From: an uncultured bacterium
Lineage (GTDB): Bacteria > Hydrothermota > Tepidihabitantia > Tepidihabitantales > Tepidihabitantaceae
NCBI GenBank assembly: GCA_964575495.1
Contig: CAZNRV010000207.1
Span: forward strand, 1 to 27,232
Direction of reading: 5' to 3'
DNA length: 27,232 nt
The notes beneath the pieces were generated by a model. That model was not told the origin of the DNA. It saw only the letters and a program-made list of their open reading frames with translations, and did not search any database. A program made the position numbers and the translations under genes. Positions 3 through 27,232 of this stretch are shown here, piece after piece. Each line of letters starts with the position of its first letter. Positions within the stretch are counted from its first letter, which is position 1.

Positions 3-773
3 GTGAGCGGTGAGATTAACCGCGACCTGAAGCCAAGCGAACTTTTCTTTAATATGGTGCGGGAGGGAAAACGCACCTCTGGATTTTTCGCAAGACTTTA
101 CGCCCGTTTGCCCAGGGTTGCTAAAGTATGGCTCCTGGTCGGGCTTGGTCTTTTCTTTGTTATTGGGGTAGTGGGTAGTCTGTTCAAGGGCAGGTTTTTT
201 GCATGTGGTCTGGGAATTTTGACATCAGGTTTTGCGGGTGCGGGGATTTCCACTCTTGCCATTCTTTTGTATCAGGTGCGGTTCGGTTCGGTCTATTCAG
301 GCGTGGCGCTGCTTCTGGCAGGTTTTATGTTCGGGACGGCGCCGGGTGCCTGGCTCGCAGGGAAAATGGCAAGATGGGTTGAGATGGAAGGGGTTGCCGG
401 AGTTATGTTTTTTAGTGCCGAGCTGGTTTTGATTGCGGTCCTGGGCGGTTTGATGCTCCTGGGTGGGGGTGGAGGTAAGGGGTTGTTTTTGCTTCTCCTC
501 TTTGTTGCCGGGATGTGTTTGGGCTGGCAGTTCGGGATTGCAAGTATTGAGAGGCAGCAATCAGGTGCGGTTTCAGGTGGCAGAACCGCAGGCCTCTTAA
601 GTATCCTTGACTTCACCGGTGGTGCGCTGGGCGGGATTTTAACCGCGCTAATTCTCTTGCCGGTTTTTAAAGTGACAGGTGCACTCCTGGCGATTGCCGG
701 ATTGAAGTTGGTGAGCGCATTGTGCCAATTATTGACAATGGCAGGTTCTAAATTTAGAATCCAGCGTGGCTAA
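3..773 (+). CDS. 5'-truncated polytopic membrane protein, probably the C-terminal membrane region of a fused MFS/spermidine-synthase-like protein
   Basis: The frame is open at the window edge and has about 6 hydrophobic helices. Motifs LYQVRFGSVYSGVALLLAGFMFG and LSILDFTGGALGG resemble the C-terminal TM region of fused spermidine-synthase-like proteins (recalled, not searched). Confidence 0.5.
   Translation: MSGEINRDLKPSELFFNMVREGKRTSGFFARLYARLPRVAKVWLLVGLGLFFVIGVVGSLFKGRFFACGLGILTSGFAGAGISTLAILLYQVRFGSVYSGVALLLAGFMFGTAPGAWLAGKMARWVEMEGVAGVMFFSAELVLIAVLGGLMLLGGGGGKGLFLLLLFVAGMCLGWQFGIASIERQQSGAVSGGRTAGLLSILDFTGGALGGILTALILLPVFKVTGALLAIAGLKLVSALCQLLTMAGSKFRIQRG
732..760 (+). promoter_or_regulatory. 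sigma70-type promoter inside the 3' end of the upstream gene, probably giving a leaderless transcript
   Basis: TTGACA (732-737), 17-nt spacer, TAGAAT (755-760), then 5 nt to GTG at 766. Confidence 0.7.
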
Positions 774-2139
774 ATTTAAGGTTAACGCCCGAAAAAATAG
801 TTTTTGGTTAATGAACTATTTTGTCCTCTTTGCGCTCCTGGGTGCGGGTTATGCTCAGGATGCCACCACACTCCCGAGTCTCGGTGGGGTTAACATTCAG
901 AGTCTGTTGCAGCCTTCGGTTCCAAATGTGCCCAGCCTGATTGGGGTGGAAAGCCCGATAATTTCCGAGAAGTATGTCCTGATGCCCGGGGATAAACTGT
1001 TAGTGACGGTAATCGGTAAATTGACATTTTCCTATCAGAGCCTGATTACCTATGAGGGCAAGGTGACGATAAATCTGCCTTTGAGTCCGATGACGCCATC
1101 CTATGATGTCACGAGTCAGCATACCCTTTATCAGGATGTGGTGGATGCTGTTACGGTTTCTGGGCTGACATTGCGTGAGGCGCAGGATACCTTGACCAGG
1201 GCGATGCACAAGTATTTCAAGGATGCCGAGGTGAAACTGACCTTAATCGGTTTGAGGTCGGCGATTGTGTTTGTCACCGGTGAGGTGCAGAATCCGGGTG
1301 CGTACAACGCATCACCGGTTGAGCGGGTTTCGCAGTTAGTGGCGCGGGCAGGCGGGCTTTCGCCCCTGGGGTCCAAGACTAAAATCTCTTTGATTCGGGG
1401 CGGGTTGCCCCATGCCAATGTGGATATTGAGCGGTTTGAGAATGAGGGTGATTTGAATGCCAACCCCTTCATTGAGTCGGGTGATGTTATCTATGTTCCG
1501 CCGGTTGAAGGGCTGGTAACGGTAAGAGGCGCGGTTTTTGGTAGGGGCGAGTATCGCATCAGGGCAAGTGCATTGACAACCGAGAAGGAGCGGATGAGCG
1601 AAGGGGTTTATGAGTTGAAACCGGGTGAGCGCGTCTTTGATGTGATTCGCAAGGCAGGTGGCATTACACCCTGGGCGGACTTGCATAACTGCTATGTTGA
1701 GCGCCTGGTTTTAAACAGCGGCGGCAAAAGGCAGCGGATTCCGATTGACCTCCATCGCGTCGTCTTTGAGCAGGATTCCAGTCAGAACATTGAACTGGTT
1801 AATGCCGATATCGTTGTGGTGCCGCCGGTAAATGCCTTTGTTTATGTGGAGGGTGAAGTCAATAAACCCGGTTCGCTGCTTTACACTCCCAACCTGCGGG
1901 CAGGTGACTATATCGGCCAGGCGGGTGGACCGGCCGAAAATGGCAATCTCAGCGGGGTGAGTATCATCCGGAATGGCAAAAGGCTCCCGGGAAAACACAA
2001 CCCGGTGCTTGAGCCGGGTGATATTGTGATTGTGCCCAGATACGGGATAAAATGGTGGCAGGACTATGTTAATATCATCGCCGATGTCGGCATTCCTACC
2101 GTCTCGCTGATATTGACAATCATCGCGCTCCAGCGTTAG
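766..2139 (+). CDS. SLBB-domain polysaccharide biosynthesis/export protein (Wza/KpsD-like)
   Basis: Signal peptide; Poly_export-like segment (YVLMPGDKLLVTVIG...G.TL.EAQ); three SLBB repeats (VFVTGEVQNPG, VTVRGAVFGRG, VYVEGEVNKPG with LEPGDIVIVP); C-terminal hydrophobic helix. Confidence 0.85.
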   Translation: MAKFKVNARKNSFWLMNYFVLFALLGAGYAQDATTLPSLGGVNIQSLLQPSVPNVPSLIGVESPIISEKYVLMPGDKLLVTVIGKLTFSYQSLITYEGKVTINLPLSPMTPSYDVTSQHTLYQDVVDAVTVSGLTLREAQDTLTRAMHKYFKDAEVKLTLIGLRSAIVFVTGEVQNPGAYNASPVERVSQLVARAGGLSPLGSKTKISLIRGGLPHANVDIERFENEGDLNANPFIESGDVIYVPPVEGLVTVRGAVFGRGEYRIRASALTTEKERMSEGVYELKPGERVFDVIRKAGGITPWADLHNCYVERLVLNSGGKRQRIPIDLHRVVFEQDSSQNIELVNADIVVVPPVNAFVYVEGEVNKPGSLLYTPNLRAGDYIGQAGGPAENGNLSGVSIIRNGKRLPGKHNPVLEPGDIVIVPRYGIKWWQDYVNIIADVGIPTVSLILTIIALQR

Positions 2140-2711
2140 TAGTGCCTTTGGCACCTGCTATAATAGACCGAAGACGGAAGACGGATGACCGGTCCCCGGT
2201 CTTCGGTCATCCCTATCCTCGGAGATATGAAGTGATGGAGTGATGAAGTCTTCATCCCTTCATCCCCTAATCCCTTCTTCTTTCCGTCTTCTATCTTTCT
2301 GACCCGGCGGCTGTGCCGACCACCAGCAAAATCGGTCCCTAAGAAAACCCGAACGACGCCCTTTGCCTGAGCGGCTGTCAAAAAATCAGCACCGAGGCAC
2401 AGCACATTAGCGTTATTATGCTCGCGGGCGAGTCGCGCCATCCTGGTATTCAAGCACAGCGCAGCGCGAACAGACCTGACCTTGTTGGCGGCGATGGACA
2501 TCCCGATGCCGGTAGCGCAAATCAGAATTCCCCGTTGAGCCTGGCCTCTTGCGACCGCCTCTGCCACCGCCAGGGCGAAATCAGGATAGTCAACCCGTTC
2601 CGGGGTGAATGTCCCTCTGTCATCCACCTTAAACCCGAGCCGCTTAAGATAGAGGGCAAGTTTCTCCTTCAAAGCAAAGCCGCGATGGTCAGCACCAAGC
2701 GCAATTGTCAT
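2136..2711 (-). CDS. rpiB: ribose-5-phosphate isomerase B with a repeat-encoded C-terminal extension
   Basis: [57 protein letters not shown]. The start overlaps the ilvE stop (ATGA). Confidence 0.95.
2139..2158 (-). repeat. mini-hairpin module GCAGGTGCC(A/G)AAGGCACTAC, copy 1
   Basis: The reverse complement is 19/20 identical to 27196-27215; stem GTGCC/GGCAC with a 3-nt loop. Confidence 0.75.
2159..2208 (+). repeat. 50-bp palindromic heptamer-based repeat, family A copy 1
   Basis: TATAATAGACCGAAGACGGAAGACGGATGACCGGTCCCCGGTCTTCGGTC; 10-bp inverted arms GACCGAAGAC/GTCTTCGGTC; 49/50 identical to 4711-4760. Confidence 0.9.
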
Positions 2712-3637
2712 CTGACAAATGTCAGCCAGCCGTATTTGTCTTCCCTTTTCAGGTCAATGATGGCAAAGAACTCCTGCTGCAGTTTCTTGGTTACGGGTCC
2801 GCACCTGCCATTGCCGATGAGAATGTGGTCAACCGAGCGGATGGGCGTAACCTCAGCCGCGCTGCCGGTGAAGAAAAGTTCATCCGCAAGATAGAGCATC
2901 TCCCGCAGCATCATCGTCTCCTTCACCTCATAGCCCAAATCCCGGGCAAGGGTGATGATGGTATCACGGGTGATGCCGGGCAGAATCGTGGCGTGCAATG
3001 GCGGGGTGAAGATGATGCCATTGCGGACAACAAACAGATTTTCGCCTGACCCCTCAGACACAAAGCCAAAAATATCAAGGGCAATGCCTTCCACAAAACC
3101 ATAGGTCAGAGCCTCCATCTTGATCAACTGCGAGTTCATATAGTTGGCGCAGGTCTTGGACATCGCCGGAAAGGTGTTGGGTGCCATCCGGTTCCAGGAT
3201 GAAACCATCACATCCACCCCCTGGTCCAGCGCCTCAGGTCCTAAATACTTGCCCCATTTCCAGGTGATTAAGGCAACATCAACCGGACAGCTGAAGGGGT
3301 TCACGCCCAATTCCTTATAACCGCGATAGACAATCGGACGGATATAGCATTCATCAAGCTCATTCCTTTTGATAAGTTCCAATGTTGCCTGATTAATCTC
3401 CTCCTTGGTGAAGGGGATTTCCATTCGGTAGATCTTTGCCGAATTGAACAGGCGGTTGGTATGGTCAGATAGCCTAAAGATTGCCGGTCCTTTGGGGGTT
3501 TTGTAACAGCGCAAACCCTCAAATACGCCGGTGCCATAGTGAATCACATGGCTGCAGATGTGAATCTTGGCATCTTCCCAAGGGACATAGCTCCCGTTCA
3601 TCCAGATATATTTTGACTTGGACTCTTCTAAGCCCAT
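2708..3637 (-). CDS. ilvE: branched-chain amino acid aminotransferase (PLP fold type IV)
   Basis: [55 protein letters not shown]; AAGGAGG Shine-Dalgarno just upstream of the ATG. Confidence 0.97.
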
Positions 3638-3650
3638 TTTGCCTCCTTAT

Positions 3651-3680
3651 AAAAACAATAGCGGAACCTTTCGGCTCCGC
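3651..3680 (-). terminator. hairpin plus U-rich tract between tRNA-Met and ilvE
   Basis: Minus strand reads GCGGAGCC-GAAA-GGTTCCGC followed by TATTGTTTTT (GNRA loop). Confidence 0.55.
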
Positions 3681-3739
3681 CACGAGGTTTTATTAATGTT
3701 AATTAACAGTATCAACAGGTTAACGCTCAAGTTTTTTTG

Positions 3740-3812
3740 TGGTGGCGAAGGGAATCGAACCCCTGACACGTGGATTATGATTCCACTGCTCTGCCATCTG
3801 AGCTACGCCACC
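3740..3812 (-). tRNA. tRNA-Met (CAT), probably elongator; CCA not encoded
   Basis: GGTGGCG/CGCCACC acceptor stem, A73, D-loop AGATGGCA, anticodon arm GTGGA-ATCATAA-TCCAC, T-loop TTCGATT. The G1-C72 pair argues against an initiator tRNA; Ile2 is not fully excluded. Confidence 0.93.
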
Positions 3813-3821
3813 CATTTTTTC

Positions 3822-3849
3822 ATTCTAACAAACGCAATGTTCAAGTCAA
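3822..3849 (-). promoter_or_regulatory. sigma70-type promoter of the tRNA
   Basis: Minus strand: TTGACT, 16-nt spacer, TAGAAT with an extended -10 TG, 9 nt upstream of the mature tRNA 5' end. Confidence 0.65.
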
Positions 3850-3853
3850 CCGG

Positions 3854-3903
3854 AATAATAGACCGACGACGGAAGACGGATGACCGGTTCCAGGTCCACG
3901 GTC
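3854..3903 (+). repeat. family A repeat, copy 2 (diverged)
   Basis: AATAATAGACCGACGACGGAAGACGGATGACCGGTTCCAGGTCCACGGTC; 44/50 identical to copy 1, same orientation. Confidence 0.85.
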
Positions 3904-3965
3904 TACTGTTGACCGGGCTGGGCTGAAAGGTAAAATTGGGCATTGATTTTACTGACAGGTGCAAG

Positions 3966-4715
3966 ATGGAAAAGCCCTTGATTATTTTGACGAATGATGA
4001 TGGAATTGAGGCAAGGGGTCTCAAGGAGCTGTTTGCGGCGACAAGGGGGCTGGGCAAGAGGTTTGTAGTTGCGCCGGCAAAAAATCAATCTGCGGCAAGC
4101 CATTCCTTTTCCCTGCGCAAGCCGATTATGGTTGAGAAGAGAAAGCCGGGCTGGTTTGCGGTTTTCGGCACACCAACCGACTGTGTGCTCATCTCGCATC
4201 ACGGGATATTCAGGCGTTCGATTGACTTGGTGATATCCGGGATAAATGACAGCGCCAATTTGGGTGATGATGTGCTGTATTCGGGCACGGTGGCGGCGGC
4301 GATTGAAGCGGCGCTTTTGGGGATACCGGCGATTGCGATTTCCTATCTTGTGGACAAAAGGAATTTTTCGTGTGTGGCGGGTTTGCTACGCACACTGGTG
4401 CCGTTGCTTTTGAACGGGCTTTTGCCCAAGAAGTGTCTCTTGAATGTGAATATTCCCGCAGGGGAGATCAAGGGTGTGCGGGTGACGAGGTTGGGCAAAA
4501 GAATCTATAAGGATATGGCGATTAAGGGACGGCTGCCAGATGGCGGTGTCTGTTATACGATTGACGGCGAGATGGGTTTTGCACCGACGCGCGGCTCGGA
4601 TTTTGAGGCGGTTTATGCAGGCTATATTTCGGTTACGCCCTTATATCTGGATATGACCCATCATTCTGAAATGCGGCGCTTGGAGAAGGCGTTTAAAAAG
4701 GCAGGCCTGATATAA
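3966..4715 (+). CDS. surE: 5'/3'-nucleotidase SurE
   Basis: ILTNDDG, VVAPAKNQSAASHS, GTPTDCV, DLVISGIN, YSGTVAAAIEA, ISVTPL. The ATG at 3966 is preferred over the track start at 3936 because the conserved N-terminus begins there. Confidence 0.95.
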   Translation: MEKPLIILTNDDGIEARGLKELFAATRGLGKRFVVAPAKNQSAASHSFSLRKPIMVEKRKPGWFAVFGTPTDCVLISHHGIFRRSIDLVISGINDSANLGDDVLYSGTVAAAIEAALLGIPAIAISYLVDKRNFSCVAGLLRTLVPLLLNGLLPKKCLLNVNIPAGEIKGVRVTRLGKRIYKDMAIKGRLPDGGVCYTIDGEMGFAPTRGSDFEAVYAGYISVTPLYLDMTHHSEMRRLEKAFKKAGLI

Positions 4716-4760
4716 TAGACCGAAGACGGAAGACGGATGACCGGTCCCCGGTCCTCGGTC
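4711..4760 (+). repeat. family A repeat, copy 3
   Basis: 49/50 identical to 2159-2208; its leading TATAA contains the surE stop codon; it lies between convergent genes. Confidence 0.9.
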
Positions 4761-4765
4761 TTCTT

Positions 4766-6745
4766 TTACCTCTCCCTCACCACCCGGCGACAGGCTACAG
4801 AGTTGCCCTGGGCATCGGTTGCCCAGACCGCAATTGTGTTTATTCCCTTGATGGGTTGAAATGCGCTTGAGAAGTGTTCCTCGGAGGAGTCAAAGATGCC
4901 GTCTTCGGGTTCTAATGGTTGCCAGTCCCCGGCATTGAATGAGATGCGGCAGGAAACAATGGGTGAGAGGTTGTCTCTGACGGTCCAGCTCACGCGGTTG
5001 CCAAAGACCCTGATTTCTGAAAGCAATGGCGGGGTGTTGTCAACAGAGAAGGGCGCAGAAAGTCGTTCGCTCCTCTTTGCGGTTTTGTCCGAATGGTCAG
5101 GCGCATCAAGGGCAACAAGGCGCAGGCGGTACCAGCCATCCGGGATGGTGCGGGTGTCAAACTCATACCGGGGTTCAGCAAGATTCTTCTGCAGCACAAT
5201 CCAGGAAGTTTCGCGCTCGGGTTGGAGATAAAGTTCAAATATTAGCGAGTCGGAATCAGGGTCATCTGCATCCCAGGTCACCTGCCTTTTGGGCTGGGCG
5301 GAACCGCGCCGGGCAAGAGGTTCTGAAGGCTGGCTTATCTCGAGTTTGGAGATAACCGGCGGGCGGTTTACCGAGCTGTAATAGATGTCAACCCGCTCCA
5401 GTTCCGGGCTATTGTTAGGGAAGTTTGAATAGAGCCGGCAGCGCAGCTGGATAAACCGGGCAGGCGGGGAGAGGGTTTTGCCTTTTATTTCCTGCCAGGT
5501 CGTCCAGAGGGAATCGGGCAGTTCATTGTTGCCGGAGCGGGTGTCAATCTGGATTTCGGTTCCCTCTGGGGTCTGGGCGCGCAGGTCGATTCTGCCGAAA
5601 CGGGCAGGGTTGACGCAATCAAACACCGGGCTGGTAACAAAGCCGGAGTCGGCATAACCAAGTTTGCTTGAATAGAGCCTTGCCGGATTGGCGGTGCCGA
5701 GATAGAGGCGGTTGTTAAGGGAGAGGCAGGAGACCACCTGAGGCTCATTAAGCCGGCAGAGGATGGCGGGCTGACCGGTAGTGTCAAGGGTATAAACAAT
5801 TCCGCGGTTGCCGGTCAAAACGCACAGTTGGTTATTGAATCGGGCAAGGCTGAAGATGACCGATTCTGGACAGACCCACTGCCATTTGACGATGCCGTTA
5901 TTGTCAAGTGCATAGACGACCGGCTGGTTTGGACCCGGGTTGGAAGCGGATTCACCGCCGGGATTGGCACAAACATAGACCGTGCGGTTGTCAGCGGTAA
6001 TGGCGCGGACTTCAGCAAGCGGGGTGTCATAGAGAACAGTAACCTCTGGGCGAGCCCCGAGGCTCACAAACTTTAAATGATAGACTGTGCCGGCGGGTGA
6101 TGTGCCGAGCAAAAGCTCCCTGTCGGGGGAAAGCCAGTAGAGGGTAGTGATATGGGCAGAGGGGACGGTGAAGAGGACCTCTGAACCCCGGTCAGGGGTA
6201 ATGCGGAAAAGTTTGCCATTCGGTCCGGTGGCGCAGAGAAGGGATTTATCTGAAGACGCAACCAAGGCGTGGATGTAGGATTCTTTTGTGGCAAAAAGCG
6301 ATTCTGGTTTTGCACTGGGGAGGAGGCGATAGATGATTCCTTGTGGGCTGGTGCCGAAATAAATGGTATTGTCAGGGGTTGTTGTCACCGTTAGGATTTC
6401 GCCGGCATCTTCACTGAATAATGGTTGTGCCTGACGGACACGGGTGCCAAGCCGGTAGAACCCGCTCTGGTTGCCGGTGCCGAGATAGATGTTGCCAGAG
6501 CGGTCGGCTCCAATTGACCAGATTGTCACATCAGCAAGCGAACAGACCGCAGCGAATTCCGGCGAGAGTCGGATACTGCCCTGAACAGGTAGATGGATGT
6601 TTTTTAACTCAATCTGGTCAAGATTAGAAAACAACTGTTCGTTCGGGACAAAGGTGAATACTCCGGCAGGGGCAGGGTTAAACGGGAGCTGGGCAAGGAG
6701 CAAAATGACCAATGACGAATGGCGAATGACGAATCGGAATTTCAT
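4766..6745 (-). CDS. exported beta-propeller protein with C-terminal Ig/FN3-like domains
   Basis: Repeated beta-propeller blades (IYLGTGNQ, IYFGTSPQG, LLCATGPNG, LLLGTSPAG, LYLGTANPA); C-terminal VTWDADDPDSD, YRLRLVALD, VDNTPP typical of Ig/FN3-like domains; overlaps the S55 gene stop (ATGA). Confidence 0.65.
   Translation of the reverse strand: MKFRFVIRHSSLVILLLAQLPFNPAPAGVFTFVPNEQLFSNLDQIELKNIHLPVQGSIRLSPEFAAVCSLADVTIWSIGADRSGNIYLGTGNQSGFYRLGTRVRQAQPLFSEDAGEILTVTTTPDNTIYFGTSPQGIIYRLLPSAKPESLFATKESYIHALVASSDKSLLCATGPNGKLFRITPDRGSEVLFTVPSAHITTLYWLSPDRELLLGTSPAGTVYHLKFVSLGARPEVTVLYDTPLAEVRAITADNRTVYVCANPGGESASNPGPNQPVVYALDNNGIVKWQWVCPESVIFSLARFNNQLCVLTGNRGIVYTLDTTGQPAILCRLNEPQVVSCLSLNNRLYLGTANPARLYSSKLGYADSGFVTSPVFDCVNPARFGRIDLRAQTPEGTEIQIDTRSGNNELPDSLWTTWQEIKGKTLSPPARFIQLRCRLYSNFPNNSPELERVDIYYSSVNRPPVISKLEISQPSEPLARRGSAQPKRQVTWDADDPDSDSLIFELYLQPERETSWIVLQKNLAEPRYEFDTRTIPDGWYRLRLVALDAPDHSDKTAKRSERLSAPFSVDNTPPLLSEIRVFGNRVSWTVRDNLSPIVSCRISFNAGDWQPLEPEDGIFDSSEEHFSSAFQPIKGINTIAVWATDAQGNSVACRRVVRER
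6704..6738. repeat. tandem heptamers inside the N-terminus of the beta-propeller gene
   Basis: Plus strand AATGACC AATGACG AATGGCG AATGACG AATCGGA, read on the minus strand as RFVIRHSSLVI. Confidence 0.8.
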
Positions 6746-8460
6746 TTTACCTCCAGTTCAAAGTTTGCCGAGCCGATGAGGACCCGGTCCAATTTCACCA
6801 CCTGTTTAAATAAAAGGCTTGAAACTAAGGGCTGAATTTCGCCAGTTGATTTGCTGGCACCAAGCACCTGCCGCAGAGATGGTGGCGGCTGGGGAAGTTC
6901 TTTGTCACCGACAGTCAGACCCGCGGTGCGGAGAAAGCCGGCAACAATCAGCTCATCTTCACTGCCGGTTTCTGAAAGCAGTTGCAGGAGTTTTTTCAGG
7001 GATGTAGGCTCAAGGGTTTTGCCTGCACGTGCAATTTCTGCAGTGAAAAACTCATCCCGACTGGTGATAGTGATGAGAATTGTGCCGGTCGGGGTGGTGG
7101 CAGGAATCGGAATGGCAATTTCCTTTTCGCTTTCATCACCCCGATAGTCACGCAGGCGCAGCCATACCGAAAGGGTTTCACCGGGTTTGAGCCTGGTGCG
7201 GTCAGGACGGGCAGAAACCAGCTGGGCGTTTTTTCTGCCGGGTGTGAAATGAAAGTCAGTTTCAACCCGATTGATTGCCAATTGCTCAAGTGGATTGTCA
7301 AAAAGCAGGGTCAGTTCGGTATTGATTTTGTTAAACATTGCTGAAAGCGGGTCAGCACCGGTAAAGATATGTCTGATTTCGACAGGAGCCTCTTGTGGTT
7401 TTAACCAGAGTCTCATCCTTGATTCGATGGTATATTCCTCCATCAACCCTTCACTTTCAAGAATGATATTTATCAGACCGATGGGCAAAAAATTCGGAGT
7501 GAGTTGTTCTTGATCAACAACCCGGAAGCGATAGGTGTCATTATTAACACTTGAGTGAAGATGGACATTGACTGGAATCAATGGTGCCTCGGGTCCAATG
7601 ATACCACTGATGCCGGTGGCGCGGTCCTGATTGATAATGCCGATTGGTCTGGTCGGGGAAAAAATCTTATAGGAGAGTTCAAGTGAAGGCAGCACGGTGT
7701 GAACCCTACCGCCGGTCATCGGTAATTGGACTGCGCCCGCAAGGAAGAGCGGGTGACCGAAGGCGAGGATTTTATTGCCTTCTCGATAAGTGATGGTGCC
7801 AACCGCCGCAGCCCGGACATCACCGTCAAGAAGCGCAACCCCGACTGCGCCACCAGGGACAAGGTCGGCGGTATCAATTTCGTCACCGACAACCCCGGCT
7901 GCAACCGGCTGGAAGCCAAGCCGGGTAAGGCTGGGGGTGATAATCTCTTTAAGGCGTTTGTTAAAGCCGGAGATGGCGAGAGGAACCGGTGGTAAATTAA
8001 GGTTTGAACGTTCTAATGGTGATGTTCGATTCTGGGCTTTGGTTTTGCCAGAGTCGGGCAACTCCCAGATTTTGAGCATTTCTTGTGCCGGGGTAATCCC
8101 GGCAATCGGCTCTTTGGCAAATGACCAGGCATACGCAACCGCACCAATCAGTTTGCCATCAATGTAAACCGGGCTGCCGGACATACCGGCGATGACGCCG
8201 GTGTTATCGAGACCGGCGCCGGAGAGCCGGGCAAGGATGAGGTCACCGCGGGGTGAGGTTTGGTGCATCACATCAATTATCTCAAACTGAAACTTTTCCG
8301 GTTTTGTGCCTGAAAACACTGAGTAGCCGCTGCCTTTCATTCCGGGCTTGATTTCAGCGACCGGCATAATTGTGACCTCAGCATAGGCAGGGGTCAGGGC
8401 AAAAGCAAACGCAGCAGCCAATGCAAAACCAAAAAGGCGAAGCCGGGGAAGGGAAATCAT
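6742..8460 (-). CDS. SpoIVB-type peptidase S55 domain protein, exported
   Basis: EIKPGMKGSGYSVFSG, GVIAGMSGSPVYIDGKLIGAVAYAW (serine motif), ILAFGHPLF; signal peptide from the ATG at 8460, which lies 1 nt after the ThiN stop (the track start at 8502 is less likely). Confidence 0.85.
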   Translation of the reverse strand: MISLPRLRLFGFALAAAFAFALTPAYAEVTIMPVAEIKPGMKGSGYSVFSGTKPEKFQFEIIDVMHQTSPRGDLILARLSGAGLDNTGVIAGMSGSPVYIDGKLIGAVAYAWSFAKEPIAGITPAQEMLKIWELPDSGKTKAQNRTSPLERSNLNLPPVPLAISGFNKRLKEIITPSLTRLGFQPVAAGVVGDEIDTADLVPGGAVGVALLDGDVRAAAVGTITYREGNKILAFGHPLFLAGAVQLPMTGGRVHTVLPSLELSYKIFSPTRPIGIINQDRATGISGIIGPEAPLIPVNVHLHSSVNNDTYRFRVVDQEQLTPNFLPIGLINIILESEGLMEEYTIESRMRLWLKPQEAPVEIRHIFTGADPLSAMFNKINTELTLLFDNPLEQLAINRVETDFHFTPGRKNAQLVSARPDRTRLKPGETLSVWLRLRDYRGDESEKEIAIPIPATTPTGTILITITSRDEFFTAEIARAGKTLEPTSLKKLLQLLSETGSEDELIVAGFLRTAGLTVGDKELPQPPPSLRQVLGASKSTGEIQPLVSSLLFKQVVKLDRVLIGSANFELEVK

Positions 8461-13622: not shown

Positions 13623-13858
13623 GGTAGAGGTAAAGGCGGTAGTTGCGAGGGCGCTCTGCCCGGGCAGGTGGCGAAAGCCACAAGCCCGTGGCAATCTGAT
13701 GCTTGAGATTGCTTCGCGGAGCCTGCCCCGAGCCTGTGTCCAGAAGGAGATTGCCACCTGCCTTTGGCAGAACGCAATGACACAGGCGTGGGAGCTCCTC
13801 GCAATGACACAGGCGTGGGGGCTCGCAATGACGGAAAGTGGGTAGAGGTAAAGGCGGT
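13623..13858. repeat. REP-like palindromic mosaic bounded by 18-bp direct repeats
   Basis: GGTAGAGGTAAAGGCGGT at 13623-13640 and 13841-13858. Inside are GTGGCAATC (13688) pairing with GATTGCCAC (13749), GAGATTGC twice, and CGCAATGAC three times (13773, 13800, 13824). Confidence 0.8.
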
Positions 13859-13932
13859 TCGTAGTTCTGGGTTCTTGGTTCGTAGTTTGGGAACTGGAAA
13901 CCTGGAACTTGGAACTTACCTACGTAGGCAGG
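13857..13932. repeat. family B GTTC/GAAC heptamer inverted repeat followed by the CCTACGTAGG palindrome
   Basis: GTTCGTA GTTCTGG GTTCTTG GTTCGTA ... GAACTGG AAACCTG GAACTTG GAACTT, then ACCTACGTAGGCAGG. Confidence 0.75.
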
Positions 13933-17526: not shown

Positions 17527-17651
17527 ATACAGGAAAGTCATATCTGGGAGGCAAAACCGTGAATAACTGTCAGCATCCCCAGTTTGATGCCGAGAACAAT
17601 CGCTGCCGCACCAAGAACAGCAAAAGTAATGAGGATAAGCCGGCGCTTCAT
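17514..17651 (-). CDS. 45-aa membrane-anchored probable selenoprotein with a C-terminal UxxC motif (CD1871A-like); absent from the ORF track
   Basis: Manual translation gives MKRRLILITFAVLGAAAIVLGIKLGMLTVIHGFASQI-U(TGA 17540-17538)-LSCMGLV-TAG. The U-x-x-C-x-G ending matches the C-x-x-C-x-G ending of small CXXC proteins found upstream of 4Fe-4S membrane proteins (recalled). A SECIS-like hairpin follows the TGA. Confidence 0.85.
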
Positions 17652-17659
17652 AAAGTAAA

Positions 17660-17737
17660 TCTCAATCTCAAAGCACTAAACCCTAAACAAACCATAAGCC
17701 ACGAACTAAAAACCAATTCGGTCATTTCGAGCTTGTT
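17660..17737. repeat. degenerate heptamer-like run plus a GTCATTTCGAGC...GAGAAATC REP-like half element
   Basis: GTCATTTCGAGCTTGTTGAGAAATCC at about 17711-17736 has the same architecture as the GTCATTGCGAG...GCAATC element near 13700; adjacent low-complexity CTAAA/CAAA repeats. Confidence 0.5.
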
Positions 17738-17775
17738 GAGAAATCCCTCTCCTGCCCATTAGAATTTTTCATATT

Positions 17776-22123: not shown

Positions 22124-22145
22124 CGATTTAAATTAGGTAGGTTTT

Positions 22146-23417
22146 CTACTTTTGGCGTCGGAAGCGGAGTTTGGCAGTTAGCGTCAGGTCGCTGTTAAAC
22201 AGACGGGCGGCAACAAAAACGGTCACCGCGGCAAACAGAGTGATGTAAACGAGCCCGGCAAAAATCAGGGAATAGTTGCTGAAAATTAAAGCCTGCGGCA
22301 CAAGGAAGGGATAGGAGAAAGGAATCGCCAGCAGAAATATTTTCAAAGGTAGTGACAAGGTCTGAATGTCAAAGAACATGGTAAAGAAGTAGGGGACCAG
22401 GCACAAAATCATTAAGGGGGCGATTGCCGCCTGGGCGCTCTTGGCATCCTCTGAGAAGACCGCCAAGAGTGTGGCAAGTGCCAGCGCGGCAAGGATGGCG
22501 AGGAAGAGGGTGATGCCGATTAAAATTATGCCTTCGGGGGTGAGATTTAAACCTAAGGTAGATGCGATGTTGGTGTTAACCGGCATCTCTTGTGGCCGCT
22601 CGGAAAATGCGGTAGTATAATATGCCATCGCTACCATAAAGATGGCCGAGATGACAAAAGCGGCAACCGCCGCACCTAACATTTTCCCTAAAACAATTGC
22701 CACCCGGTTGATAGGCACTGTCAGAAGTGTCTCTAAGGTTTTGTTTTCCTTTTCCTGTCCGATTGATGCGGCAATCATCTGACTGGAATAGATTATGACC
22801 ATTAAAAGGACGATTGGAATCAGAAATGTCTGGGAGATGACCAGCCGGTGGATAATTTCCGGGCTACCCCGCGCAACCTTGCTTTTGACAACGACATATT
22901 CGCCGGTCTTGAGCGGGTTCTGAATGTTTTCCGGCTCCAGTCCCGCCGCAATCTTTTTTAATTGGCGCCGGGAAAGTTCGGCATTAATCTGTGCGAGGGC
23001 GGACTTGACTTTGACACCCCGGATGCTTTGGGCAAAGGAAAATCCCTTGATAATTGAATAGGCTTCAACCGTCACCGGCTCAAACCGAGCAAACCGCTCA
23101 TCAAGGCTTTCGGGCAGAACTATGAGCAGGGCAAACTTCTCTTTTTGCGCCCGCTCAATAGCACTTTGCGTTTCCTCTTGGGTTCGGGTGATTAAAAGCC
23201 CGCTTTGCTGGAGCCGGCTGACTATAGTGTCAGCGATTGCTGACGCTGCTCTAACCAATACCAATGCGGGCTCGGGTGCGCCTGCCTTTTTCCTTTCGCT
23301 GCGAATTGCCCTGCCAATGAAAAGGAAAAGGAGCATTATTGCGAAAAAAGGGACAAGCATTTTGCGGGTCAAAAGCTCCCGCATCTCTTTAAGGATTATC
23401 GTTCCAAGGACTCTCAT
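22146..23417 (-). CDS. ABC-2 type exporter permease (NatB-like)
   Basis: IILKEMRELL N-terminus, large periplasmic loop, SIGQEKENKTLETLLTVPINRVAIVLGK motif, C-terminal TM helices. Confidence 0.9.
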   Translation of the reverse strand: MRVLGTIILKEMRELLTRKMLVPFFAIMLLFLFIGRAIRSERKKAGAPEPALVLVRAASAIADTIVSRLQQSGLLITRTQEETQSAIERAQKEKFALLIVLPESLDERFARFEPVTVEAYSIIKGFSFAQSIRGVKVKSALAQINAELSRRQLKKIAAGLEPENIQNPLKTGEYVVVKSKVARGSPEIIHRLVISQTFLIPIVLLMVIIYSSQMIAASIGQEKENKTLETLLTVPINRVAIVLGKMLGAAVAAFVISAIFMVAMAYYTTAFSERPQEMPVNTNIASTLGLNLTPEGIILIGITLFLAILAALALATLLAVFSEDAKSAQAAIAPLMILCLVPYFFTMFFDIQTLSLPLKIFLLAIPFSYPFLVPQALIFSNYSLIFAGLVYITLFAAVTVFVAARLFNSDLTLTAKLRFRRQK

Positions 23418-24207: not shown

Positions 24208-24236
24208 TTGACATAAGAAAATTTTAATTATAAAAT
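24208..24236 (+). promoter_or_regulatory. promoter of the S8 protease gene
   Basis: TTGACA (24208-24213), 17-nt spacer, TAAAAT (24231-24236), 8 nt, then ATG at 24245. Confidence 0.75.
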
Positions 24237-24244
24237 TATTAAAA

Positions 24245-27100
24245 ATGAGGAATTTGAGAGAGTGTCTGATGAATGTCATCCTTGATAGTTGGTTCATAGT
24301 TCTTGGTTCTTGGTTTTTGGTTCGGAGAACTGGGAACTTGGAACTAAGAGCAGGGAACTGTCTGATGCTGGTACTCGTGCCAATATCCTTGGCATTGGCG
24401 GTTCATAGAGCCGATTTCGCTCCCAATCGCTTCATCGTTAAGTTCAAAGGCGAGGTTAAAGCTGCGGTTATTGCCGGCAGAGTTCACACCGGCATTACTG
24501 AAATTGACCGGCTTAATGCGGATTTAGGAATTACCGGCATCTCAGCGCTTTTTCCCGGACCCTTCAATGAATTTGCAGAACGGCTGGGACTCAACCGCGT
24601 GTATCTTTTGACCGCGAGCCAGGCACTTGACATCCAGACCGCGGTCCGGCGATATGCCTCGCTGGATGCAGTGGAGTATGCTGAACCGGATTTCTGCGGT
24701 CGGGCACTGGCGACTGCACCCAATGACCCAAACTACAGCGAACAATGGGGATTTAAAAACACAGGTCAATTGGTTGGCGGCACTGGTCATCCCGGAACCC
24801 CGGGCTGTGACATTGATGCGGAACTGGCTTGGGACATTGAACGGGGGAACCGTGACATCATCGTCGGTAATCTTGACAGCGGTGCAGATATCGACCATGA
24901 GGAGTTGGTGGCAAATTATCAGGCGAGTGTTCTCTGGCACAACTGGGCTGAGGTTCCCGGGAATAATGTCGATGACGACAGCAACGGCTATATTGACGAT
25001 ACCCTCGGTTGGAACTTTGAGGATAGCACTCAAGGGCACCCGAACGGCACCAACAATATTGATGACAACCACGGTCATGGCACCCATACCACGGGCACAA
25101 TTGCCGCCCATACGAATAATAGCACCGGTGGTGCCGGCACCGTTTGGTATGGCCAGGTAATGGCGGTGAAGGTGCTCAATGCCCAGGGCAAGTTCTGGTA
25201 TTCCCATTTGTGCAAGGGCATCTACTATGCGGTGAACAATGGCGCCCGGATTCTCAATATGAGTCTGGGCGGAACACCATATTCGAGCACGCTTGAGGCA
25301 GCGGTTAATTATGCCTGGAATTCGGGCCTGCTGCCGGTTGCGGCGATGGGCAACGATACGCTTAATGATGACAGCACCAAATTCTATCCCGCAGGCTTTG
25401 ACAATGTGATTGCGGTCGGTGCGACCGCCAATGATGATGAGCGCATGGTCAAAAACCACAACGGCTCACGGATGTACAGTATGTGGGGCTCGTGGATTGA
25501 TGTCACCGCGCCCGGCAATAACATCTACTCAACTATGAGGAACAACGGTTATGACTGGTGGTGGGGCACTTCAATGGCAGCACCCCATGTGACCGGCACT
25601 GCCGCACTGCTTTTGAGCCGCAACCCGGATTTAACTCCTGCTGAACTGAAGAACATCATTCAGGCAACTGCTGAGGATTTGGGTGCGCCTGGATTTGATG
25701 TGTACTTCGGTCATGGCCGGATTAACGGCTATCAGGCGCTGCTGCGGGTTGCATTTCTTCCAGGCTGGACCTCGGAGACGCTCCTGATGTCCGGCTATGA
25801 AGCCTGCTTTGAACCGGATAATGCGGTTTCAGGTGCCAATGTCCATCTGGTTTATTCGGACAAAGGTGGAGGTGGCAGGGCAAGAGGGCTTTATTATCTG
25901 CGCAGCACTGATGGCGGCAGAAGTTGGGGACAGGCGCGCCTGCTCACCAGTTATCAAACCAATCTGGCTGACTGGCATCCCAGGCTTGCGGTTTGGGGCA
26001 ATCGGGTTTGCGTTGTGTTTCATGACACCCGAGGGAGTTATTGCGGCGTCTTTTTCAAGCAGAGTACTGACAACGGTCAGAACTGGGGCAATGATTTCCT
26101 GGTAAGCGATTCCACTGTTGAATCCAATCGGGCAGATATCTGCCTTGCCCGCGACACGATTCATGTGGTGTGGAACTGCGGTTACCGGCGTAGCACCAAT
26201 GGCGGCACAGGCTGGGACCTTATTAATAATGGCGTCAGTGGCGATGCGATTGCGGCGAGCAACAGCCGGGTTTTTGTTGCCGGTCGTTTTTTGTCAGGTG
26301 GTTCATATCAGGTGACGGTCAGGCGTTATAACGGCACAGGGTGGGAACCGGCGATAGCGCTGGATACGAACTATAGCTGCTATCCCAATCCGGATGTGGC
26401 GACTGATGGTAATAATGTGTATGTAGTCTGGGATGAGGAAAGGGATGCAGACGGAATTTCTGAAGAGATTGCGCTGCGCCGGAGCACTGATGGCGGTGCC
26501 AGCTGGACCAAGCACCAGCATATTGCCAATGTGGGTGAGAACTATACCTATCGCAACCCCCGCATCTCAGCCGGTCAGGGCAAGGTCAATCTCGTCTGGT
26601 GGGGTGACCGGGACAAATACTGGTCCTGCGAGGTGTATTACAAGCGGAGCACCAACTCAGGTTTGAACTGGGGCAACACCTACCGGCTTTGTTATAACGG
26701 TAACAACGAATTGGATGAAATGCCTGCGGTCGGATTCCTTGCCGATACGGTGCATGTTGTCTGGGACAGAATGGCTTCGGGCACAAAGTCAATTTACTAC
26801 ATTCGCAAAGGGACAACCCAATCAGGTTTGCCTGCTTTTTCAACACTTAAGCCCAGGTTTTCTCCGGGGCTGAGCCCGAATCCGGTTCGTGGGTTGGCGC
26901 GGGTGCGCCTGGATGTGCCTGTCTCAGTACCAATTCAACTGTGCTTATTTGATGTAAGCGGACGGGCGCAAAACTGCCCTTTTTCCATTAACCGCGCGGA
27001 ACTGTGTCTTGACTGCAGAGAAATCCCGGCAGGAGTGTATCTGCTTGAACTGAAGGCAGGGCAATATCAGACAAGGGAGAAACTGATAGTCCAGCATTAG
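24245..27100 (+). CDS. secreted subtilisin-like S8 serine protease with propeptide, BNR/Asp-box propeller and T9SS/Por-like C-terminal domain
   Basis: Catalytic motifs LDSG, HGHGTH and GTSMAAP, oxyanion Asn in AAMGN; Asp-boxes (STDGGRSW, STDNGQNW, STNGGTGW, STDGGASW, STNSGLNW); C-terminal PNPVRG...LFDVSGR...PAGVYLL...KLIVQH. Confidence 0.93.
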   Translation: MRNLRECLMNVILDSWFIVLGSWFLVRRTGNLELRAGNCLMLVLVPISLALAVHRADFAPNRFIVKFKGEVKAAVIAGRVHTGITEIDRLNADLGITGISALFPGPFNEFAERLGLNRVYLLTASQALDIQTAVRRYASLDAVEYAEPDFCGRALATAPNDPNYSEQWGFKNTGQLVGGTGHPGTPGCDIDAELAWDIERGNRDIIVGNLDSGADIDHEELVANYQASVLWHNWAEVPGNNVDDDSNGYIDDTLGWNFEDSTQGHPNGTNNIDDNHGHGTHTTGTIAAHTNNSTGGAGTVWYGQVMAVKVLNAQGKFWYSHLCKGIYYAVNNGARILNMSLGGTPYSSTLEAAVNYAWNSGLLPVAAMGNDTLNDDSTKFYPAGFDNVIAVGATANDDERMVKNHNGSRMYSMWGSWIDVTAPGNNIYSTMRNNGYDWWWGTSMAAPHVTGTAALLLSRNPDLTPAELKNIIQATAEDLGAPGFDVYFGHGRINGYQALLRVAFLPGWTSETLLMSGYEACFEPDNAVSGANVHLVYSDKGGGGRARGLYYLRSTDGGRSWGQARLLTSYQTNLADWHPRLAVWGNRVCVVFHDTRGSYCGVFFKQSTDNGQNWGNDFLVSDSTVESNRADICLARDTIHVVWNCGYRRSTNGGTGWDLINNGVSGDAIAASNSRVFVAGRFLSGGSYQVTVRRYNGTGWEPAIALDTNYSCYPNPDVATDGNNVYVVWDEERDADGISEEIALRRSTDGGASWTKHQHIANVGENYTYRNPRISAGQGKVNLVWWGDRDKYWSCEVYYKRSTNSGLNWGNTYRLCYNGNNELDEMPAVGFLADTVHVVWDRMASGTKSIYYIRKGTTQSGLPAFSTLKPRFSPGLSPNPVRGLARVRLDVPVSVPIQLCLFDVSGRAQNCPFSINRAELCLDCREIPAGVYLLELKAGQYQTREKLIVQH
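24263..24367 (+). mobile_element. 87-bp family B heptamer element bounded by 9-bp direct repeats (MITE-like insertion)
   Basis: TGTCTGATG at 24263-24271 and 24359-24367, 96 nt apart (32 codons); inside are GTTC heptamers followed by inverted GAAC heptamers. Confidence 0.6.
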
Positions 27101-27152: not shown

Positions 27153-27232
27153 CTTGGTTCATAGTTCTTGGTTCGGAGAACTGGGAACTGCCCTGGCAGG
27201 TGCCGAAGGCACTACCTGGAACTAAGAACAGG
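27153..27232 (+). repeat. family B element (truncated by the window end) carrying the mini-hairpin module
   Basis: GGTTCATAGTTCTTGGTTC-GGAGAACTGGGAACT matches 24291-24338 with two fewer heptamers; an extra 27 nt (27190-27216) precede TGGAACTAAGA. Confidence 0.8.

Follow-up and report, generated by a model that had tools for sequence, protein, structure and literature searches.

The question raised by this locus is whether a small transposon-like insertion, bounded by a duplication of its target site, has entered the 5' end of a protease gene in an uncultured bacterium. The gene lies at the end of the 27,232-nt stretch of DNA analysed here (the window), which is contig C207 of the genome G000, a 1.7-Mb bin of 286 contigs that is 91% complete; the closest named proteins come from candidate division WOR-3. 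Near the start of the reading frame a palindrome built of 7-nt units stands between two copies of the 9-mer TGTCTGATG, which the original prediction had taken for a target-site duplication (TSD) around a unit that may be mobilised in the manner of miniature transposable elements with inverted repeats (MITEs). Our analysis reveals that the palindrome belongs to a truly mobile family of hairpins, and it is this family and not the 9-bp repeat which is the interesting part. At the protease gene the element has probably replaced the old ribosome-binding site (RBS), the start codon and the first seven to eight codons, with translation now starting at ATG 24365 or TTG 24338. The features on which the argument turns are the following.

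24245-27100, forward strand: longest open reading frame (ORF), 951 amino acids (aa), encoding an S8 subtilase that carries a propeptide at the N-terminus, a BNR-like domain and a C-terminal sorting domain of the T9SS type.
24263-24271, forward strand: left copy of TGTCTGATG, 15 nt upstream of the left end of the family; five of its nine bases agree with the colinear 5' untranslated region (UTR) of locus L017 from the sister species.
24287-24365, forward strand: the canonical element, 79 nt, with GGTTCNN units on the left, a GGA loop, NNGGAAC units on the right and a terminal TGTCTGA.
24359-24367, forward strand: right copy of TGTCTGATG, in which the element terminus TGTCTGA overlaps the resident ATG.

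What had been observed at this place was confirmed. Both copies of the 9-mer are exact and spaced by 96 nt, and the palindrome between them consists of two period-7 arrays detected by Tandem Repeats Finder (TRF), the first with TTGGTTC units (24289-24323) and the second with GAACTGG-type units (24327-24360). The ORF stays open through the hairpin and gains 32 residues there, as had been claimed, so that it reads MRNLRECLM, the 32 residues and then LVLVPISLALA-V without interruption. Removal of one 9-mer together with the insert was expected to leave a typical signal peptide, and excision of the 96 nt indeed yields MRNLRECLMLVLVPISLALA, which is well formed and 20 residues long. The product needs a signal peptide, since this S8 subtilase carries both a propeptide and a T9SS sorting tail. 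Whether the insertion lies inside the signal peptide depends on the start codon, and on this point the gene callers are split: the window protein was called with 951 aa, whereas 911 aa starting at ATG 24365 were called on L018, a contig of the JGI dataset 3300010284 whose DNA is identical to the window across the region.

The boundaries of the element can be read from its other copies in the genome. In BLAST comparisons with these copies the similarity begins at 24285-24287 and ends at 24359-24368. One copy at an unrelated locus (C31) is 96% identical over 82 nt (24287-24368) and has its variant heptamers in the same order, and another one (C131) is 97% identical over 63 nt. Sorting all right ends gives, in about 20 copies, GGGAAC, then T(A/G)TCCGA, then unrelated sequence, with the C31 and C201 copies reading TATCCGATG; sorted left ends show AGTTGGTTC after unrelated sequence, which falls on 24287 at the window copy. 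The family ends are AGTTGG...GGGAAC-T(A/G)TCCGA and the canonical element is therefore 24287-24365. The TGTCTGA in the right 9-mer has one mismatch to the variant TGTCCGA, seven of the nine bases of this 9-mer are element terminus, and CTGATGCTGGTA at the same place is common to L017. As a whole the element is an imperfect palindrome of GTTC and GAAC units; the number of heptamers per arm differs among copies, and neither of the conserved termini, AGTTGG and TRTCCGA, is the inverse of the other.

Filled and empty sites were compared with the sister species G003, which shares about 78% DNA identity and is syntenic across the window and contig C237. Junctions were taken from the ends of BLAST blocks, MAFFT alignments being unreliable here. 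In G003 the stop codon of rpmJ directly abuts the start of pyrG (TAA GTG; CAGGGATAA followed by GTGGCT). In G000 (C237/L043, 3983-4068) exactly this joint is occupied by a composite hairpin of 86 nt, whose GGTTC arms enclose a GGTAAAG-type core; it ends with GGGAACTATCCGA and leaves an ambiguity of 0-2 nt. From this site it follows that the family is mobile and capable of precise insertion without a TSD, and that TATCCGA is part of the element. Together with the sorted right ends, it also follows that TGTCTGA at 24359-24365 is element and not target. The AGGGAAC of the inserted element is the sole possible RBS of pyrG in G000. A second precise insert, with 0 nt ambiguity, is a 126-nt composite repeat between two genes of the window (17647-17772), which contains reversed GAAC heptamers and the motif GGTCATTTCGAGC and carries TTCAT at both ends.

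Four intergenic sites on C237 are replacements (8137, 10327, 13737 and 15082). At 8137 there are 27 nt in G003 versus 73 in G000, and others show 54 versus 260 nt and 53 versus 127 nt. The 94-nt heptamer element at C237 13738-13831 stands opposite a 923-nt gene region of G003 (C27 5584-6506), and a match of 9 nt, GGGTTGGTT, connects the end of the element with the flank; in the window, 22 nt (22133-22154) stand opposite about 1 kb of G003 which includes coding sequence (C13 8326-9339). Gene loss may go with the repeats at these last two sites. About 210 nt of repeats at C237 12462-12696 lie directly upstream of a GGAG RBS, and on C122 repeats reach the start codon of a response-regulator gene, which is TTG in G000 versus ATG in four relatives; both at pyrG and at this gene the element adjoins the start codon, as it does ATG 24365 of the protease. 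No junction compared with G003 shows a TSD, each being either precise or a replacement of resident sequence.

Copies are also found inside conserved genes. On contig C256 (L022), GGTTCNN hairpins at 600-659 and 5202-5240 lie in frame in rpoC and rpoB, respectively. In rpoC 19 element-encoded codons take the place of six (R-Y-Q-G-K-x) present in nine relatives, a net gain of 13, and in rpoB 17 such codons take the place of nine in seven relatives, a net gain of eight; alignments with these relatives reveal no flanking duplication at either copy. In both genes the mRNA corresponds to the weakly folding strand of the element. Here the palindrome is in frame in a conserved ORF and absent from the orthologs, which for the protease applies only if its start is 24245. 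The variable region of rpoC (about 700-850, minus strand of C256) also contains GACCGAA/GACGGAC-type units encoding KDPGPKTDDGP, and in the same loop GGTAAAG/GGTAGAG-type units encode STFTSTF; both are in frame and neither is present in the nine relatives.

Flanking duplications were searched for in 44 copies by comparing the longest exact repeat between the 45-nt left and right flanks with that of randomly paired flanks. Over these copies there is no excess of flanking repeats (mean 5.66 observed versus 5.50 permuted), and repeats of at least 9 nt occur in 4.5% of the real versus 1.8% of the permuted pairs. A flanking repeat of at least 8 nt is present in six copies: in four it is element sequence, and the others are the 9-mer of the window and the 8-mer CGGATGGT at the rpoB copy. 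The 8-mer was rejected as a TSD because its spacing of 59 nt would shift the frame. An apparent duplication of about 15 nt in another repeat family (C237 15910-15987) was likewise rejected, as it looks like a continuation of the 8-nt unit of that array. The 9-mer of the window is left as the only locus-specific flanking repeat among the 44 copies, and the sister-species junctions give the same picture. MITEs are characterised by TSDs at most copies; for this family the permutation result is null, the two clean empty sites leave 0-2 nt and 0 nt, and the other sites are replacements. A cognate transposase, which was to be looked for, was not found: Y1/RAYT (PF01797, matched in the control genomes), DDE_Tnp_1, rve, IS110, TnpB and reverse transcriptase have no match in G000, which is an incomplete draft. 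Copies of insertion sequences (IS) often fail to assemble in drafts. Thus the suggestion that these palindromes are mobile and do not arise by slippage alone stands as far as dispersal by copying is concerned, given the C31 copy and the clean empty sites, and is not supported as far as the MITE model is concerned.

As to the 9-mer itself, the permuted pairs show that its chance at a single locus is low. Over the 44 testable copies of the genome, however, one would expect 0.3-0.8 hits of such length by chance, and TGTCTGATG occurs 27 times in the genome versus 13 expected. Because the locus was chosen for its repeat, the repeat is discounted as evidence.

What the sequence upstream of the element most likely represents is indicated by the sister species, for which two further features are needed.

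24208-24236, forward strand: sigma-70-like promoter, TTGACA-17 nt-TAAAAT, 11 of 12 matches, conserved in the sister species (L017/L002).
24245-24286, forward strand: segment upstream of the element, which holds the in-frame ATG 24245, ATG 24269 and the left 9-mer; most likely a former 5' UTR.

Between the end of its -10 box and ATG 24245 there are 8 nt. In L017 the promoter is followed by a leader of 78 nt, an RBS and a GTG start, and 24237-24286 is colinear with the first approximately 43 nt of this leader, agreeing in 29 of 41 columns (p = 0.0013 by shuffling, p = 0.00075 against GC-matched genomic 50-mers). The agreement extends to its parts: 24263-24286, anchored at a shared GAGAG, gives p = 0.003-0.008, and the 15 nt which a TSD model must count as part of the insert (24272-24286) give p = 0.009 at the colinear offset. 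Compared with the coding starts of L017, L013 or the outgroup, 24245-24271 shows no significant similarity (p = 0.35-0.46, with p = 0.41 for L017), and with each of five scoring schemes the best global alignment puts the segment on the L017 UTR. The stretch 24246-24286 is homologous to the UTR of the sister species, and the simplest reading of the bases up to 24286 is as the old 5' UTR. The right copy of the 9-mer is the terminal heptamer of the element plus TG, and the left copy lies 15 nt outside it in UTR-like sequence. By the criteria given with the original prediction the reading as a TSD largely fails; against it speak this homology, the boundaries of the family, the match at its terminus and what was seen at all other copies examined. 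The leader of L017/L002 also contains two small perfect hairpins just before the RBS, TTATCAT...ATGATAA and TAGTTGCC-TTG-GGCAACTA, the second of which ends like the heptamer family (TAGTT...AACTA).

The orthologs of the protease were compared as well. The nearest relatives, both of 85% identity, are P0002 (an NCBI WOR-3 bin, locus L017, nearly identical to G003/L002), with the N-terminus MSKKSLVLMLVTILLARA, and P0003 (L013-L016), with the N-terminus MGAASIKKPFMLVLAITSLALA; an RBS and spacer, AAAGGAGGTTAAT, immediately before the start codon are common to both. A group of orthologs with about 60% identity begins V(K/R)N(A/T)CIALLALLAA... All of these closest orthologs have ordinary signal peptides of 18-22 residues, and the hairpin is absent from every compared ortholog of 85% and about 60% identity. 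An exact search of metagenome contigs for the predicted empty junction (the window minus 96 nt) was negative, which is weak because the protein collection holds no relative of 85-100% identity. Besides ATG 24245, two start codons are candidates in the window.

24338-24340, forward strand: candidate start TTG, in frame, within the right arm, 10 nt after a GGAG at the hairpin tip, as read from the sequence.
24365-24400, forward strand: ATG 24365, start of the 911-aa product, with the conserved hydrophobic core and an ALA-V cleavage motif.

A Sec signal has a positive n-region, a hydrophobic core of 7-15 residues and an AXA motif about 15-30 residues from the start. ATG 24365 is homologous to an internal Met of the ortholog signal peptides and by inspection would give a signal peptide of only 12 residues, which is uncharged. 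From ATG 24245 there are two hydrophobic stretches split by RRTGNLELRAGN, with the AXA motif at residue 52, so that such a precursor would not be a canonical Sec signal. TTG 24338, if used, would give a regular signal peptide of 21 residues, MELRAGNCLMLVLVPISLALA. If the mRNA starts near 24243, either translation may begin at a 5'-terminal AUG, or there may be a leader of 120 nt, of which the last 79 nt fold into a very stable hairpin that ends at AUG 24365.

For these reasons we consider it probable that the element took the place of the old gene start. According to this proposal the subtilase gene would have received a copy at its 5' end once the lineage had separated from the sister species, and not by cut-and-paste transposition at a staggered cut. 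The copy would have replaced about 55-60 nt of what stood there, presumably in one step, namely the 3' portion of the 5' UTR, the RBS AAAGGAGG, the GTG start and the first seven to eight codons. On L017 the element would cover the bases from ATAGTTG to just before CTGATG, including the small UTR hairpin. The left joint would lie at a microhomology, with ATAGTTG in the sister UTR and in donor copies, and so would the right joint, where the element end TRTCCGATG meets the resident (GTC)CTGATG; that ATAGTTG and (TC)CTGATG match the ends of donor copies suggests such a role for microhomology. The right 9-mer would then be the element terminus plus the resident ATG and the left one old UTR, and their identity would be coincidental. 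That the frame is open back to ATG 24245 would be incidental, since stops are absent from two of the three frames that cross the element.

Several observations weigh against this replacement. The 9-mer is exact, one copy begins at the arm end, and the chance of this at a single locus is about 0.3-2%. In the excised form MRNLRECLMLVLVPISLALA the ATG precedes the conserved Met by eight codons, the spacing also seen in L017, and M-R-N...C resembles the V-R/K-N-x-C of the approximately 60% identical orthologs, although this likeness is short. Moreover, the insert keeps the reading frame, which was rated as an event of about 1 in 5 because of the two stop-free frames. Finally, the comparison rests on one syntenic sister lineage (G003/L017), with which the direction of the changes in UTR and start is not fixable.

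These observations would be accounted for by the original prediction or a milder form of it, namely a true insertion of 96 nt, consisting of 15 nt of donor flank and the hairpin, with a real 9-bp duplication of TGTCTGATG and a 32-residue in-frame insert in the signal peptide, which we nevertheless regard as unlikely. The prior allele would have read ATG AGG AAT TTG AGA GAG TGT CTG ATG CTG GTA on a near-leaderless mRNA, to which the position of the -10 box 8 nt before ATG 24245 would be suited, and insertion was perhaps guided by a likeness between target and element end. In its favour are the exact repeat, the kept and open frame, the normal signal peptide after excision, which shares with L017 the distance of eight codons between start and conserved Met and with the outgroup the R-N...C motif, and the choice of the 951-aa product by one gene caller. 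However, the 15 nt which must be inserted align to the sister UTR and are present in no other copy. Since the right copy agrees with the conserved terminus at seven of its nine bases, a further coincidence of about 0.2% or a target preference is needed. Neither the other copies nor the clean empty sites have a TSD, and an additional earlier deletion of exactly the approximately 70-nt UTR with its RBS would be required. The predicted empty junction was not met in the metagenome contigs, and the resulting N-terminus, with its two hydrophobic stretches around RRTGNLELRAGN, would be a non-canonical Sec signal.

Still less probable is growth in place, in which nothing was inserted and an ancestral UTR hairpin, corresponding to TAGTTGCC-TTG-GGCAACTA of the sister species, was expanded by heptamer slippage or converted by other copies of the family, while nearby sequence was lost later in separate events. 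The global alignments do pair ATAGTTGCCTTGG...GCAACTAA of L017 with ATAGTTCTTGG...GGAACTAAG of the window, the number of heptamers per arm is variable, and the family is old. However, the order of variant heptamers is the same as in the C31 and C131 copies (96-97% identity), which argues for recent copying from another locus, and the L017 hairpin is without GTTC/GAAC heptamers. That the hairpin was merely misassembled into the gene is hardly credible even for a repeat-rich, fragmented bin in which many of the 286 contigs end in these repeats, because L018 is identical across the region, both flanks are syntenic with the sister species, and rpoB and rpoC likewise hold in-frame elements of this kind between intact flanks.

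Turning from the protease to the family as a whole, the census of G000 comprises 46-51 GTTC...GAAC hairpins together with 125 and 137 arm arrays. A four-unit pattern has 66 matches in G000, whereas the majority of 40 relatives have 0-6 and give about zero with the reversed pattern as control; the exceptions are G015 with 26 and G023 with 14 matches, which have comparably high control counts. The family is old, as it occurs in low copy number in G003 and in other genera, and what we see is a recent burst of heptamer-built hairpins in one uncultured WOR-3 species, whose repeats move, abut start codons and sit in rpoB and rpoC. TRF, census and folds agree in showing tandem 7-nt units, several families in the genome and the capacity to form hairpins. 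In the literature no description of such repeats in WOR-3 was found. The RNA of the element folds with -34.9 kcal/mol (z = -6.4) on the plus strand and with -13.5 kcal/mol on the minus strand, where the fold is weaker because many pairs are G-U. A search of Rfam with the element gave no family, the sole match being a meaningless miRNA (E = 0.66). Relative to transcription, the strongly folding strand is sense in eight and antisense in four copies between co-directional genes, and sense in three and antisense in six copies inside ORFs; there is no clear bias, and strand orientation gives no support either way for a role of the element at the RNA level. Two more copies lie in the window.

13857-13915, forward strand: second copy of the family.
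27157-27232, forward strand: third copy, truncated where the contig ends; its right arm contains a 30-nt mini-hairpin, TGCCCTGGCAGGTGCCGAAGGCACTACCTG, as a nested unit.

The mini-hairpin (27189-27218) occurs at the same point of the right arm in at least nine other loci (among them C69 5735, C140 147 and C241 103).

Comparing the family with known systems, the Rickettsia palindromic elements (RPEs) come to mind, which are described as palindromic repeats of about 100-150 bp lying in frame in coding genes, including essential ones, and encoding a conserved peptide (Ogata et al. 2000, 2002, as summarised in PMC10969869). Going by these descriptions, both systems are short, palindromic and dispersed, and both enter genes in frame, including essential ones, adding a peptide without destroying the gene. 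The elements found here differ in being arrays of 40-90 nt made of 7-nt units in variable number, while RPEs, as described in these sources, are not built of heptamers. Furthermore, they belong to another phylum (WOR-3), lie mostly at gene boundaries and in 5' UTRs, and replace resident codons in the coding cases. With the heptamer build and the other phylum, a sequence relationship to the RPE families is not expected. No transposase gene is known to be associated with RPEs, and none was found in G000. Cyanobacteria have short tandemly repeated repetitive sequences (STRRs) made of heptamers. They also have small dispersed repeats (SDRs; Elhai et al. 2008, cited in PMC3116915). SDRs are very small hairpin units nested in other repeats. 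The WOR-3 family resembles these in its tandem 7-nt hairpin units, in the presence of several families per genome and in the nested 30-nt mini-hairpin, and TGCCCTGGCAGGTGCCGAAGGCACTACCTG looks like a repeat within a repeat of the SDR kind. Unlike STRRs, its units are GGTTCTT/GGAACTN, it has fixed termini (AGTTGG/TRTCCGA) and in-frame copies in rpoB and rpoC, and it belongs to another lineage.

MITEs such as Correia, Nezha and ERIC are defined by TSDs of fixed length and by a parent IS or transposase (PMC10969869). The present elements share with them the small size, the lack of coding capacity, the multiple copies, an inverted-repeat structure in the form of an imperfect palindrome and the frequent position near gene starts, where 5' UTRs are affected, but TSDs were looked for without success, and the incomplete draft yielded no parent transposase. 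REP/REPIN elements, which owe their mobility to RAYT tyrosine transposases (PMC3116915, PMC3733652), also are hairpin-forming extragenic repeats which cluster in tandem and insert without a TSD; the family in G000 differs from them in that no Y1/RAYT gene was detected in the incomplete draft, that it has no GTAG/CGTC tag, that it is built of heptamers and that it also lies inside genes.

The 9-bp repeat at the protease should therefore not be used as evidence of MITE-type transposition, and the start annotation of the protease (951 versus 911 residues) is uncertain. Beside the RPEs, the hairpins represent a second, independent case of proteins and 5' leaders being reshaped by palindromic selfish DNA, and the clean pairs of filled and empty sites offer material for working out a mechanism of insertion free of TSDs. 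Rather speculatively, the GGTTCNN hairpins and the other heptamer families might be a new kind of bacterial mobile DNA, spreading without a staggered cut by hairpin-mediated template switching or break capture. Such a spread would overwrite short resident stretches at microhomologies, and it would explain the landing at stop/start junctions, the takeover of RBSs and the in-frame entry into rpoB and rpoC.

Besides the GGTTCNN hairpins, G000 contains further repeats which accompany them. Many hairpins are followed on the right by a CCGAAGG-N-GCGTGGCAATCT repeat (C11, C21, C90, C131, C140, C181 and C183), and many are preceded by GTCATTGCGAGCGACC or by heptamer arrays of the GGATTTAG or GGTAAAG type. 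The repeat families combine into larger composite blocks, in which many contigs of the bin end. Heptamer palindromes of another family, the AGACGGA/CCGGTCC type, are present at 2159-4760 of the window, with TRF arrays at 2165 and 4717, and rpoC holds units of this type in frame as well.

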